This document shows, in pieces, positions 60,837 through 64,000 of a stretch of DNA of 64,000 nucleotides (within the stretch, counting starts at the first letter, position 1; every line of letters starts with the position of its first letter). The notes beneath the pieces were generated by a model. It searched no databases, was not told the origin of the DNA, and saw nothing but the letters and a program-made list of their open reading frames with translations. The translations under genes and the position numbers were made by a program. The stretch is from Escherichia coli. GTDB lineage: Bacteria > Pseudomonadota > Gammaproteobacteria > Enterobacterales > Enterobacteriaceae. The stretch is from the NCBI RefSeq assembly GCF_024502345.1, contig NZ_JALDNN010000001.1, one strand, 5' to 3'.

Positions 60837-60863
60837 AAAAAATAAGCCCGTGTAAGGGAGATT
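60837..60863. other. P2-type attachment-site core (prophage left junction)
   Basis: aaaaaataagcccgtgtaagggagatt, matching the 27-nt P2 att core as I recall it; lies just outside the 3' end of the integrase gene. Confidence 0.7.
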
Positions 60864-60942
60864 TAGGGTGTCACCAGTAGGGGCTTTCAACGGTACAATG
60901 CGGGTTTGAGCGGCATAAATTACCACTGAAAGCCCTTAAACG

Positions 60943-61956
60943 TTACTCTACTGTGGACACTGTGTGGACACTCTCGGCCTCAGTACCACCTCTTAGCGGA
61001 TTAAGAGAAATGGCGTCCTGAAGGTACTCTGGCGCAAAATGAGCGTAAACCATAGTTTGCTCAATCCGCGTGTGACCTAGTATCCGTTGTAGCGTGATAA
61101 TACTTCCTCCATTAATCATGAAATGAGTGGCAAAGCTGTGCCTTAGTGCATGTGTGGCTTGCCCCATTGGCAAATCCGGTTTTATTGCTTTCATTGTTCG
61201 TCTGAAGCGAGGGTAATCAGCATCAGGGAATAAAAAACCTCGTTTGTTATCCGCGATCATTTTGGCAACAGCCTCTGAGATCGGGACGGTGCGTGGTTTG
61301 TTTGTTTTCGTTTTAACAAACGTGACGCGGTTATGGATGATATTTTCTGCTTTCAAACGAGCTGCTTCTCCCCAACGCGCTCCTGTACTCAGGCAAAGAA
61401 TCGCAATCTTTTTATTGTCGCCGTCAAGTGCTGCAAGCAGTAAGGCAATTTCTTCCTGTGTGAGATAGCCTGTTTCTGGTTTTTCCTCCTTAAGCCTCTT
61501 TGTCCCTCTGATAGGGTGCTCACCAAAGAATAACTCCGCTTCAATCAGGGCTGTAAACATGCCGCTAATACATGTTAAATCACGATTGATACTCGAAGGT
61601 TTAATACCCTGACTTCTTCGGGTGGCGCAGTACTGGCTGATAAGGGATTTCGTGATTTGAAATGCGCATGGGTCATTCGTTATTTTTGTGAAGATTTCAA
61701 TTTTTCCAAGATTAGATTTCCCATGCTCTTCGTGTTTACCCTTTAAATCCCACCAGATCTGTGTCAGTTCCGACAGACGTCGTTTGTCTGTTGGTTTTGA
61801 TAGCCATTCTTTATTGTGGTGGTTGTACAACGTGTATTTTTCGAAAGCGACAGCTTCGCTTTTCTTATCAAATTTCCTACGGATGCGTTTTCCGTTACGT
61901 CCAGTAGGGCGGATGTCCACTTCATATCGACCATCATCGAGTTTTTTGATTGCCAT
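60943..61956 (-). CDS. int: P2-like tyrosine integrase
   Basis: 337-aa ORF MAIKKLDDGRYEVDIRPTGRNGKRIRRKF... with C-terminal R..HxxR..Y catalytic motif region (HALRHSFATHF...GHTRIEQTMVYAHF). Confidence 0.9.
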   Translation of the reverse strand: MAIKKLDDGRYEVDIRPTGRNGKRIRRKFDKKSEAVAFEKYTLYNHHNKEWLSKPTDKRRLSELTQIWWDLKGKHEEHGKSNLGKIEIFTKITNDPCAFQITKSLISQYCATRRSQGIKPSSINRDLTCISGMFTALIEAELFFGEHPIRGTKRLKEEKPETGYLTQEEIALLLAALDGDNKKIAILCLSTGARWGEAARLKAENIIHNRVTFVKTKTNKPRTVPISEAVAKMIADNKRGFLFPDADYPRFRRTMKAIKPDLPMGQATHALRHSFATHFMINGGSIITLQRILGHTRIEQTMVYAHFAPEYLQDAISLNPLRGGTEAESVHTVSTVE

Positions 61957-62071
61957 CAGAAAACCCTCCGAGTGGTACTTTTTTTTGCTACTACTAATCG
62001 CTTTTTTCGTGGTGGCTGAAATTTAGCCACCAATAGTAGGCACTTGTGATGAATATATTCACGATAAATTG

Positions 62072-62371
62072 TTAACCAGTCTTTTGACCGGAGTGGGGCG
62101 ACGTTGTTTCGTTTTGCCCAAAGTGTGCGAGAGCGGGCGCAATTTGCCCGGCTTCTGGAGCTACCTGATCAGTCATGAACCACAAAGTATATTTAGTAAA
62201 TCTAGGATGTTGTAAGACCTTCATTATGGCTTCAACTCCAGCGTTTTTTGACCGGCTCTCATAGCTCGAAAGTGAGCTGTAGGCTACACCAGTTAATTCA
62301 CTGAATTCTTTACGGTTTAACCTTTCAGATTCACGGATTAGCTTCAACTTCTCCGAAACGTCTATTGACAT
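62072..62371 (-). CDS. C: P2-type immunity repressor C
   Basis: 99 aa from MSIDVSEKLKLIRESERLNRKEF...; HTH; divergent from cox, as in P2 early region. Confidence 0.8.
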   Translation of the reverse strand: MSIDVSEKLKLIRESERLNRKEFSELTGVAYSSLSSYESRSKNAGVEAIMKVLQHPRFTKYTLWFMTDQVAPEAGQIAPALAHFGQNETTSPHSGQKTG

Positions 62372-62492
62372 AATTACTCCGATTGCGTAATTTCTTGCTG
62401 ATAGTGTGAAATGTTGTGCTTCTGGAGTTATCCTTTTAGGCAATAATTAGCCATTAGGAGCCATTAGAAGCACTAAGGGAGAATCGTAGCAG

Positions 62493-62768
62493 ATGAATAG
62501 ACAGCTTGTAAGCGTGACTGATGCCGTGCCTTATCAGGAGTTTGCAAAACTCATTGGTAAAACTCCAAGAGCTGTAAGGGGCATGATTGAGAAAGGGAAA
62601 TTACCAGTTATTGAGATTACTGACCCTCAGTCAGTATCGGGGCGTGCTGGTGAATATTGGGTATACCTTCCGGCATGGAATAACGGACTAAAACTGGCTT
62701 ATGAAAGCCGTCCTAAAGAGATTCGTGACGGCTGGTTGATGTGGTTAGGTCTCGGTGAACCACGTTAA
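62493..62768 (+). CDS. cox: P2-type Cox excisionase/transcriptional switch protein
   Basis: 91-aa ORF MNRQLVSVTDAVPYQEFAKLIGKTPRAVRGMIEKGKLPVIE... Confidence 0.85.
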   Translation: MNRQLVSVTDAVPYQEFAKLIGKTPRAVRGMIEKGKLPVIEITDPQSVSGRAGEYWVYLPAWNNGLKLAYESRPKEIRDGWLMWLGLGEPR

Positions 62769-62949
62769 GGAGAACCGTATGAATGAGCCGCGTTGTATTG
62801 CTCAGTTATTGCGTAACGAAAGCCCCAGGGCGATTGACTTCACCATCACCCACGGGAAGGGACGCAAGGGAATCATTATCCGCACCAAAAAACAGAGTCC
62901 GTTAAAGAAGGCTCTGACCTTTCTGAAAAGCCGGAGGGTCTGGAAATGA
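62755..62949 (+). CDS. P2 early-region small ORF (orf78-like)
   Basis: 64-aa ORF overlapping cox end and B start. Confidence 0.6.
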   Translation: MNHVKENRMNEPRCIAQLLRNESPRAIDFTITHGKGRKGIIIRTKKQSPLKKALTFLKSRRVWK

Positions 62950-63446
62950 CAGTGATGACGCTCAATCTCGTTGAAAAACAGCCAGCAGCTATGCGCCGGA
63001 TAATTGGTAAGCATCTTGCCGTCCCTCGCTGGCAGGAGACATGTGATTATTATAATCAGATGATGGAACGTGAACGGCTAACGGTTTGCTTCCATGCGCA
63101 GTTAAAACAACGTCACGCAACGATGCGTTTCGAAGAAATGAACGATGTCGAACGTGAACGGCTGGTTTGTGCAATTGATGAATTGCGTGGGGCATTCTCA
63201 AAACGCCGTCAGGTCGGTGCAAGTGAGTATGCATATATTAGTTTTTTAACAGTCAGTCAGCGTCGTACTTTATTTATGCATGCCGGATTGACTGAAAAAG
63301 AATTCAACCAGCCATACTGGCGAATTAATGAAGAATCATGTTACTGGCGTGATGCTTTATTCCGTGCATTACGTGAATTATTCAGCCTGTTTGAGTATGC
63401 ACCGACAATTCTGACGTCGGTAAAACCAGAGCAATATCTGCATTAA
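62946..63446 (+). CDS. B: P2-type replication protein B
   Basis: 166-aa ORF in the position of P2 gene B. Confidence 0.75.
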   Translation: MTVMTLNLVEKQPAAMRRIIGKHLAVPRWQETCDYYNQMMERERLTVCFHAQLKQRHATMRFEEMNDVERERLVCAIDELRGAFSKRRQVGASEYAYISFLTVSQRRTLFMHAGLTEKEFNQPYWRINEESCYWRDALFRALRELFSLFEYAPTILTSVKPEQYLH

Positions 63447-63476
63447 GTAATTAACCAGAGTTTTTAACGCACTTAA

Positions 63477-63734
63477 TTGTGCGGGGCTTCTTTTTGCCTG
63501 GAGAAAGTCATGCATACAGTTTCTGAAAATCAGTGCGGTAAATACGCATTACTGCTGCAACAGGCCAGAACCGAAGCACAGGCCGACGCAGCGACGCGCT
63601 TTTCTTCTCATCTTGACGCCATGATTCGCCACATCACAAAGGCGGAGTTATCCCGCGTGGAGATAGTCGAGCTGCTCAGTCAGGAGTCGGAAAAATTTCA
63701 CAATATCGGATTGTCTCGCGGGGAGGTACTTTGA
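63477..63734 (+). CDS. P2 early-region small ORF (orf80-like)
   Basis: 85-aa ORF after B. Confidence 0.6.
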
Positions 63735-64000
63735 TGTCCTGTTCTCATTCAGTTGTATTACTGAATAACGCCTTAAAAATCGCCGTTATGGAAAATGGTG
63801 ATTTGTCTCTTATTCAACTTGGTCTTGATAAAGAAAAACGCGACATCACTGAATCTGTTATCGCGATTTATCAGAATGAATTAAACCTCCTGTCTGATGT
63901 GGTCAATTTACTTGTTAAACGCGCTGTATTCCACAAGCAAATTTCCTCAGTGGATGAACTGACAAAATTAACGACAGAACTTGCCTGTTATTGCGCTGAT
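63734..64000 (+). CDS. P2 early-region ORF (orf81-like), cut by window edge
   Basis: ATG at 63734 overlapping previous stop; frame stays open to window end. Confidence 0.5.
   Translation, partial: MSCSHSVVLLNNALKIAVMENGDLSLIQLGLDKEKRDITESVIAIYQNELNLLSDVVNLLVKRAVFHKQISSVDELTKLTTELACYCAD

Follow-up and report, generated by a model that had tools for sequence, protein, structure and literature searches.

Phage P2 has locI as its classic preferred site in E. coli. Among its relatives, P2 Hy dis carries an immunity region that we take, from the classical literature, to be derived from the E. coli B prophage, and immunity classes I to VII were reportedly defined by Karlsson in 2006. A phage belongs to a class when its C repressor shares 95% identity or more with the reference of that class (PMC3448106). 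The Hy dis operator has a half-site of 8 bp on each side of the -35 element, the two being spaced 26 bp apart, with a "natural point mutation" in O2 (PMC1904268), and Hy dis Cox has been reported with E33 and a threonine at position 25 (PMC3936717). In WPhi the half-sites are 10 bp long, lie 34 bp apart, and flank the -10 element, and the C protein is only 43-44% identical to those of P2 and Hy dis (PMC1904268); the integration site also differs (PMC3448106). The MG1655 annotation places between yegR and cyaR/trhP the cryptic prophage PR-X (629 bp, comprising the yegZ pseudogene and ogrK), which is 97% identical to P2 23748-24382, the opposite (D'-ogr-attR) end of the phage. PR-X is all that MG1655 has at this site, in agreement with the original prediction made from the DNA studied here, which described a P2 remnant only (ogrK/yegZ) in K-12.

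The 64,000-nucleotide stretch of E. coli DNA that was analyzed (the window) ends differently. We conclude, with a probability of about 92%, that positions 60837-64000 hold attL, at the int end, together with the early genes of a P2-family (Peduovirus) prophage at locI, with P2-type integration and Hy dis-type immunity. This reading is carried by sequence identity, the host-prophage junction, the gene order, the overlap of the att core with cyaR, and the identity of the immunity switch to that of the E. coli B prophage. The junction comprises the following features:

60679..60836, no strand assigned: bacterial arm of attL (chromosomal spacer from the yegR stop to the core), 100% identical to the empty-site locus L011 and 93% to K-12
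60837..60863, no strand assigned: att core (attL copy), 27 nt, AAAAAATAAGCCCGTGTAAGGGAGATT, matching P2 attP (NC_001895 24356-24382) at 27/27 positions
60880..60953, no strand assigned: predicted Cox-binding region of the att site (cox-boxes), by coordinate transfer from P2 protein_bind Cox 24399-24472
60951..60977, no strand assigned: predicted P' arm Int-binding sites (direct repeats TGTGGACAC), from P2 protein_bind Int P' arm 24470-24496, 100% identical here

The P2-type core had been predicted at 60837..60863, and direct alignment to attP agrees at every position. The core AAAAAATAAGCCCGTGTAAGGGAGATT occurs once in the window, and none of 100 shuffles held a match at up to three mismatches (0/100). 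Identity to P2 around it extends for 165 nt without a mismatch (window 60836-61000, P2 24355-24519), spanning the P2-annotated Cox-binding region and P' arm. On the host side, the ORF layout of the window agrees with the predicted position beside yegR. Five empty-site strains (L011, L026, L029, L030, and L031) match the window at 99.92-99.99% identity as far as 60863, beyond which they run on into cyaR-yegQ, giving the order yegR-core-cyaR-yegQ; homology to every empty-site locus stops exactly at the core end, 60863. Exact-protein look-ups with YegR, C, and a strain-specific GatD variant likewise returned near-identical hosts with an empty site, and prophages that were at most 99.2% identical. 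The site is still empty in the closest host relatives, which differ by 1-16 SNPs over 11-14 kb, so the insertion is recent.

Read on the minus strand, the core is the final 27 nt of the CyaR sRNA gene, made up of the terminator loop, the 3' stem strand, and the U tract. Rfam matches to CyaR_RyeE cover the core both at the empty site and at attR of the relative PEC1011. The original prediction did not mention this overlap, which makes the locus a clean case of a phage that targets the 3' end of an sRNA gene while regenerating the gene. At the empty site the CyaR terminator folds at -19.1 kcal/mol, compared with -10.2 kcal/mol for the attL core; the idea that the latter serves as a terminator for int was rejected, as its fold (z = -0.09) is no better than that of shuffles. 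No RNA gene other than CyaR was found in the prophage part by Rfam at the gathering threshold, and the window holds no tRNA gene. One remote possibility is that an earlier P2-like prophage left a fossil in the host arm at 60778-60819, with a degenerate core end and a P-arm Int site, in which case the "bacterial" locI site would itself be phage derived. The P-arm-like fossil gave just three exact matches in the scan of representative genomes, a number that tells little about its distribution across species.

Beyond the junction, the window holds seven prophage genes and one terminator-like element:

60943..61956, minus strand: int, P2 tyrosine integrase, 337 aa, 337/337 identical to P2 Int; Pfam Int_N (1.3e-24) and Phage_integrase (8.7e-22)
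62072..62371, minus strand: C, immunity repressor of the P2 Hy dis / E. coli B type, 99 aa, 64.6% identical to P2 C; Pfam HTH_3
62493..62768, plus strand: cox, excision directionality factor and repressor of Pc, 91 aa, 83.5% identical to P2 Cox; Pfam Phage_Cox (1.7e-42)
62779..62949, plus strand: orf78, function unknown, 56 aa, 56/56 identical to P2 Orf78
62946..63446, plus strand: B, replication protein (lagging-strand synthesis in P2, according to the P2 annotation), 166 aa, 164/166 identical to P2 gpB (98.8%)
63468..63495, plus strand: terminator-like hairpin 3' of B, corresponding by coordinate transfer to the putative P2 terminator 26980-27007; hairpin at 63468-63483, then a T-rich tail
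63510..63734, plus strand: orf80 (DUF2732), 74 aa, 73/74 identical to P2 Orf80 (98.6%); Pfam DUF2732
63734..64000, plus strand: orf81 (DUF5405), first 88 of about 100 codons, the gene being cut by the window end, 80/88 identical to P2 Orf81; Pfam DUF5405 (2.7e-29)

The order int, C, cox, orf78, B, orf80, orf81 is that of P2, as are strands and lengths. The early order from int through B had been called from the open reading frames, and these lie where they were placed, with the Pfam families found over the prophage ORFs (Int_N and Phage_integrase, HTH_3, Phage_Cox, DUF2732, and DUF5405) in agreement.

Departure from P2 is greatest in the immunity switch, where region 62202-62514 has no blastn match to P2. 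C aligns to P2 C at 64 of 99 positions, the differences being confined to the N-terminal two-thirds, as anticipated for the repressor N terminus, while the last 31 residues are identical. The 64.6% identity compares with a published 63% between the C proteins of P2 and Hy dis (PMC1904268). In Cox, the differences from P2 fall in the N-terminal winged-helix half; E33 is present, and the ungapped alignment to P2 gives T24-P25, versus the published T25 (PMC3936717). The switch (331 nt) is 100% identical to that of E. coli B ATCC 11303 (NZ_CP140008), whose int/C/cox prophage also adjoins yegR. C itself is identical to the copy in PEC1011 (an exact match in L001) and corresponds to RefSeq WP_000020919.1, the accession of C in E. 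coli B ATCC 11303; the same protein occurs in 348 of the 5426 complete E. coli genomes. Three regulatory elements can be placed in the switch:

62346..62356, plus strand: putative operator half-site O1 (AACTTCTCCGA), the first direct repeat, lying 5' of the Pe -35 and 26 nt from the second
62365..62393, plus strand: predicted early promoter Pe, with -35 TTGACA at 62365-62370, a 17-nt spacer, and -10 TAATTT at 62388-62393
62372..62382, plus strand: putative operator half-site O2 (AATTACTCCGA), the second direct repeat, lying 3' of the Pe -35

In the alignment to P2, the TTGACA of the predicted Pe coincides with the annotated -35 of P2 Pe; in both sequences the hexamer overlaps the start codon of C. 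The two repeats flank it, 26 nt from start to start, and their 8-bp pair, TTCTCCGA in O1 and TACTCCGA in O2, differs by one mismatch, which fits the natural point mutation of Hy dis O2 (PMC1904268). The Hy dis-specific primer A3-44 (CCTTTCAGATTCACGG, PMC1904268) matches exactly at 62321-62336, 10 nt upstream of O1, and has no match in the P2 switch. On this indirect evidence (the identity to E. coli B, the operator geometry, the primer, and E33 but not position 25 of Cox), we assign the switch to the immunity type of P2 Hy dis and the E. coli B prophage. The different immunity type that had been suggested is thus borne out and can be named.

We propose the following life cycle for this element. 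Integration would have been carried out by the P2 Int, a tyrosine recombinase, with IHF, joining the attP core to its exact 27-nt counterpart in the 3' end of cyaR; such recombination accounts for the order host arm, core, Cox-boxes, P' arm, int in the window. An intact cyaR and a second core would then be expected at the far end of the prophage, beside ogr and yegQ and outside the window. For maintenance, C would be made from Pc together with int and would bind the two half-sites 26 nt apart around the Pe -35, shutting off cox-orf78-B-orf80-orf81 and the downstream A gene. Excision would require Int and also Cox, which would occupy the cox-boxes next to the core. The strain is probably lysogenic at locI for a P2-family phage of Hy dis-type immunity. 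This state predicts immunity to Hy dis-type phages, though not to P2 itself, occupancy of P2's preferred site, and possibly a helper function for P4-like satellites. The prophage would also compete with P2 for the chromosomal site, because its Int and att site are those of P2.

The remainder of the prophage presumably lies beyond the window. Among 5426 complete E. coli genomes, the best megablast match to 3.4 kb was 99.2% identical and the best to 25 kb was 98.3% identical. PEC1011, the closest complete genome, has a 33-kb prophage between two cores, with the ogr end and CyaR at attR, and it also carries the late genes and the A gene with ori; most relatives extend for about 33 kb. The exact 46-mer scan gave no matches in GTDB representative genomes and three in IMG/VR, none of them collinear with the window. 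The SNPs private to the window were considered as patches recombined from P2 and rejected as such, because at most of them the P2 base is that of the other relatives and not that of the window. The suggestion that P2-like prophages often carry variable anti-phage cargo further along is true of relatives (PMC9122126), the neighborhoods with the same C having been examined, and one or two defense modules are probably located just past the window. In PEC1011, the A-Q and G-FI hotspots each hold a single large gene (440 aa and 472 aa) without a PADLOC or Pfam match. That the unseen remainder carries an undescribed anti-phage system at either hotspot seems to us very improbable.

Several other identities for the element were weighed. 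A 186-like (Eganvirus) prophage, which would be marked by Apl beside a large CI repressor and by a 186-type integrase, usually one that targets a tRNA gene, was rejected given the 99-aa P2-type C, the Phage_Cox protein, the lack of a tRNA gene in the window, and cyaR as the target. We consider it very unlikely that the window shows some other integrative element (186-like phage, P4-like satellite, or genomic island) with a borrowed P2-type integrase and att site. P2-type integrases and cores are common to mosaic elements, and P2-like phages are documented to recombine between the regulatory region and the late genes (PMC3448106), but the visible early operon is that of P2, in P2 order and at 94-100% identity. 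Moreover, the repressor is the 99-aa C and not a 186-type CI, the partner gene is Phage_Cox, and all 10 neighborhoods with this C (10/10) continue with the same P2 early genes, the A gene being present in at least 7. A K-12-type remnant like PR-X was rejected as the identity of the element, as int, C, cox, and B are intact in the window.

A remnant of another kind would arise if a deletion, for example one joining orf81 to ogr, had left int-C-cox-orf78-B-orf80-orf81 as a cryptic left-end fragment. There is a precedent in L019, which has the same C at the same site and in which an Ogr_Delta gene comes immediately after orf81, with yegQ next, and K-12 shows that remnants do accumulate at locI. 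We nonetheless regard this outcome as improbable, because 8 of the 10 distinct neighborhoods with this C run on through A, a cargo module, and portal and terminase genes, PEC1011 has 33 kb between its cores, and the seven ORFs in the window are undamaged and of P2 lengths (orf81 as far as the window end). The recent insertion, seen from closest hosts with an empty site (1-16 SNPs in 11-14 kb), also leaves little time for decay. A prophage of tens of kilobases that has been inactivated by internal deletions or IS elements, as in E. coli B, is easier to envisage, if still unlikely. In E. coli B ATCC 11303, whose copy has the identical switch, the portal gene is truncated and fused to a morphogenesis-gene fragment, and further late genes are partial. 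An IS66-family element sits within scaffold gene O of the PEC1011 prophage, and L020 has an IS and fragmented cargo. On the other side, the visible 3.2 kb shows no damage, the acquisition is recent (the closest hosts have an empty site), and the viable isolated phage vB_EcoM-720R8 is 98.3% identical across the same 3.2 kb. A defective prophage would confer immunity, and possibly defense cargo, and would yield no phage.

Returning to our preferred reading, a P2-family prophage end with Hy dis-type immunity, its significance beyond annotation is small. The recent insertion, recognized from near-identical empty-site strains, may be useful for strain typing. We consider the observation to be already known biology, namely, an ordinary P2-family prophage end with a characterized immunity type.

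Comparison with the known systems places the locus closely. With P2 (NC_001895 / AF063097), it shares an identical 27-nt core, Cox-boxes, P' arm, Int, and Orf78, B and Orf80 at about 99% identity, gene order and lengths, and the chromosomal site locI beside yegR/cyaR. In contrast, the putative half-sites of the window flank the -35 at a 26-nt spacing, whereas those of P2 flank the -10 at a 22-bp spacing (PMC1904268). Given the unlike switch, C, Cox, and operator layout, the window prophage and P2 should be heteroimmune. PR-X shares the chromosomal site, the phage family, and both flanks (the host arm next to yegR and, opposite, cyaR), but it is the opposite end (635 nt, with a D' fragment, ogr, the P arm, and the core) and lacks int, C, and cox; the int end shown by the window is absent from K-12. 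WPhi and the other P2-like immunity classes (I-X) have in common with the window a small C repressor acting on direct repeats and a face-to-face Pe/Pc switch (PMC2995052, PMC3448106). The isolated phage vB_EcoM-720R8 (ON470606) has an identical C repressor (100%) and is 98.3% identical over 60800-64000, a DNA divergence of about 1.7%. The likeness to P2 Hy dis extends to the operator geometry and the exact primer match (PMC1904268). Finally, the E. coli B prophage (ATCC 11303) shares the 331-nt switch, the C and Cox proteins, and the site beside yegR; it differs in that the E. coli B copy is internally deleted, and the window has its own, mostly synonymous, SNPs outside the switch.

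A P2-like prophage junction is confirmed beside yegR. The att core (AAAAAATAAGCCCGTGTAAGGGAGATT, 60837-60863) matches the annotated attP core of P2 (NC_001895 24356-24382) at 27/27 bases on direct alignment, bearing out the P2-type core of the original prediction; it is single-copy within the window, and 100 dinucleotide-preserving shuffles gave 0 matches with ≤3 mismatches. Mismatch-free identity to P2 extends from the core through 61000 (P2 24355-24519), across the P2-annotated Cox-binding region and P' arm Int sites. By blastn, DNA identity to P2 is 98.1% at 60836-62201 and 94.5% at 62515-64000, with no match to P2 at 62202-62514. 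The predicted series of int, C (the repressor), cox, orf78, B, and further early ORFs was reproduced in position, and both P2 proteins and Pfam (Int_N plus Phage_integrase, HTH_3, Phage_Cox, DUF2732, and DUF5405) agree with the gene calls.

Genes of the early region, with protein identity to the P2 counterpart
60943-61956, minus strand, int, 100% to P2 Int
62072-62371, minus strand, C, 64.6% to P2 C
62493-62768, plus strand, cox, 83.5% to P2 Cox
62779-62949, plus strand, orf78, 100% to P2 Orf78
62946-63446, plus strand, B, 98.8% to P2 B
63510-63734, plus strand, orf80, 98.6% to P2 Orf80
First 88 codons, to the window end, plus strand, orf81 (partial), 90.9% to P2 Orf81

Gene content, order, and length are all without anything unusual in the visible 3.2 kb. 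Single-nucleotide differences private to the window are mostly synonymous, and their derivation as patches from P2 was considered and rejected. A 59-amino-acid ORF (60666-60845, plus strand) starts at the end of yegR, crosses the host arm, and reaches the att core. Some assemblies annotate it (e.g., L012, an O157:H7-like locus, at 11527-11706), but it lacks a Pfam match and probably does not represent a true gene.

In five prophage-free host relatives (loci L031, L026, L029, L030, and L011), the order is yegR, core, yegQ, and the final core base (60863) is the precise point at which all five lose homology to the window. Locus L031 differs from the window chromosome by 1 mismatch in 11.3 kb, and the other four differ by 8 to 16 mismatches in 10.5 to 13.8 kb. 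The prophage insertion is recent, as these closest host relatives have an empty site. The Rfam CyaR model (RF00112, 100.7 bits, minus strand) spans the core at the empty site of L011 (10480-10565) and is found again at the far junction of the related prophage in E. coli PEC1011 (locus L001, 35795-35880); it has no match in the window. The P2 core is thus the last 27 nt of cyaR, comprising the terminator loop, 3' stem strand, and U tract. When the phage integrates, cyaR is restored at attR, while attL is left with an orphan 27-nt copy, the one seen in the window. This attL copy fails to re-form the terminator hairpin (fold of −10.2 kcal/mol, z = −0.09; the empty site gives −19.1 kcal/mol, z = −2.04). 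The K-12 RefSeq annotation has the same geometry, with the cryptic P2 remnant PR-X (2167183-2167811) overlapping the last 18 nt of cyaR. The overlap of locI, the classic P2 site in E. coli, with cyaR/ryeE has probably been noted in the small-RNA literature, though the literature search retrieved no paper that states it. A second variable spot adjoins the att site: the yegQ-yegP interval holds a parDE type II toxin-antitoxin pair in L007, L011, and L026-L031 (at ~12.1 to 12.7 kb), which include the closest host relatives of the window, and in PEC1011; the pair is absent in K-12 and several other strains.

The stretch that diverges from P2 (62202-62514) is the transcriptional switch, and four lines of evidence assign it, by sequence, to the P2 Hy dis immunity type. 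The 331-nt segment 62190-62520 recurs at 100% identity in E. coli B ATCC 11303, whose defective P2-like prophage also sits beside yegR and encodes the same C and Cox; in the classical account, P2 Hy dis took its immunity region from the E. coli B prophage. The sole direct repeats in the switch, AACTTCTCCGA (62346-62356) and AATTACTCCGA (62372-62382), lie 26 nt apart and flank TTGACA at 62365-62370, which aligns with the annotated −35 element of the P2 early promoter, Pe. These predicted operator half-sites share the published Hy dis geometry of two 8-bp half-sites, 26 bp apart, flanking the Pe −35 element, with a natural mismatch in O2, and differ from those of P2, which are spaced by 22 bp around the −10 element; the WPhi spacing is 34 bp (PMC1904268). 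The Hy dis-specific PCR primer A3-44 (CCTTTCAGATTCACGG, PMC1904268) matches exactly at 62321-62336 and has no counterpart in the P2 switch. C is 64.6% identical to P2 C (published value for P2 versus Hy dis, 63% [PMC1904268]), and Cox carries E33, as reported for Hy dis (PMC3936717). The claim of a different immunity type holds. However, Cox reads K23-T24-P25-R26 (62562-62570 encode residues 24 to 26), which does not fit the published T25 of Hy dis, proline being reported at position 25 in WPhi (PMC3936717); either the numbering or alignment in that paper is offset, or the window's Cox truly differs from the Hy dis reference. The type is common: the switch is present in 348 of 5,426 complete E. 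coli genomes, many O157:H7 strains among them, a public assembly index has 32,900 blocks with the C protein, and the isolated phage vB_EcoM-720R8 has an identical C. Among the at least 10 immunity classes of P2-like C repressors (PMC2995052, PMC3448106), this C probably belongs to one with experimentally mapped operators.

Since the window ends inside orf81, the extent of the prophage was judged from relatives. Eight of 10 distinct neighborhoods with the same C continue through A and a variable cargo module to portal and terminase genes, and in the closest complete genome, PEC1011 (99.2%), two cores lie 33 kb apart and gene O contains an IS66-family element. The alternative, a remnant ending shortly beyond the window, has a natural case in locus L019 (7853-8638), where the same C lies at the same site and ogr and yegQ come immediately after orf81, leaving a left-end remnant; the E. 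coli B copy has an internal deletion. We consider it very probable that the window's element extends for tens of kilobases and, with less confidence, somewhat likelier than even that it is intact.

Cargo at the A-Q hotspot varies in nearly all relatives, in agreement with the hotspots described for P2 (PMC9122126). PADLOC identified Lamassu (in L012), a type I-B retron, AbiP2, SIR2-HerA, and Old among the relatives, consistent with the expectation that P2-like prophages often carry anti-phage cargo. In the E. coli B copy, RefSeq annotates a similarly organized module of three genes, with ABC-three component proteins and an AAA ATPase. Each PEC1011 hotspot holds one gene (L001 8507-9829, plus strand, and 27260-28678, minus strand), encoding 440 amino acids (annotated as HEPN domain-containing) and 472 amino acids (hypothetical). 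Neither has a PADLOC or Pfam match, and thus both are candidate uncharacterized defense genes, in a relative and outside the window.

The anatomy, identities, and exact junction were read from the DNA, and the mechanism proposed here draws on established P2 biology. Int and IHF would have integrated the phage at the cyaR terminator. C would be transcribed leftward from its promoter, Pc, together with int and would bind O1 and O2, blocking Pe and silencing cox-orf78-B-orf80-orf81 and the A gene. Cox would in turn repress Pc and, on cox-boxes at 60880-60953, direct excision. Because C repressors of the P2 type are not known to respond to SOS induction, phage release would be a rare, spontaneous event. 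Immunity of the lysogen is predicted against Hy dis-type phages but not against P2.

Elsewhere in the window, IS1 (InsA/InsB ORFs, 34504-35201) occupies the expected position of yehC and an IS5 transposase ORF (36871-37839) splits yehB, so this strain appears to lack a functional yehABCD chaperone-usher fimbrial operon. The yeh region also encodes two tandem OrzO-P antitoxin RNAs on the minus strand (21909-21984 and 22519-22592; Rfam RF02083, 99.9 and 88.8 bits), a zor-orz type I toxin-antitoxin pair.

The original prediction was correct overall in observation and interpretation, and the prophage is already known: its proteins carry RefSeq accessions and are found across thousands of assemblies. 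That K-12 holds only a remnant is upheld by alignment to MG1655, in which yegR is followed by these segments.

MG1655 segments at the site, in order from yegR
177 nt, 93% identical to window 60679-60854, ending in a partial core (18/27)
635 nt, 97% identical to P2 23748-24382: D fragment (yegZ), ogrK, and P arm
Perfect core, then cyaR and trhP (yegQ)

A possible older trace lies left of the core, where 15 nt of the host arm (60778-60819) match the P2 P-arm Int site exactly (TCGATGTGGTCAATG), preceded by AAGGGAGATT, the last 10 nt of the core. Locally aligned to P2 24292-24322 over 31 columns, it scores 33, and the highest score among 2,000 shuffles and 760 other window segments was 27. The trace is also present in empty-site strains. 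It resembles the fossil remains of an earlier P2-like prophage that has shrunk to ~50 nt (old core end, P arm, and current core). An exact P2 P arm plus core at true attP spacing occurs on a 9.7-kb contig binned as Collinsella (L037 72-161; metagenome-assembled genome labeled Collinsella sp., JAIJJM010000051.1), most likely a mis-binned enterobacterial phage contig.

Overall, the element is a member of a thoroughly studied family, combining the P2 att/int module with the assigned Hy dis switch at locI. PR-X of K-12 has the same pattern as the putative host-arm fossil, which is more eroded, and it keeps the ogr end without the int end, whereas the window shows the int end.
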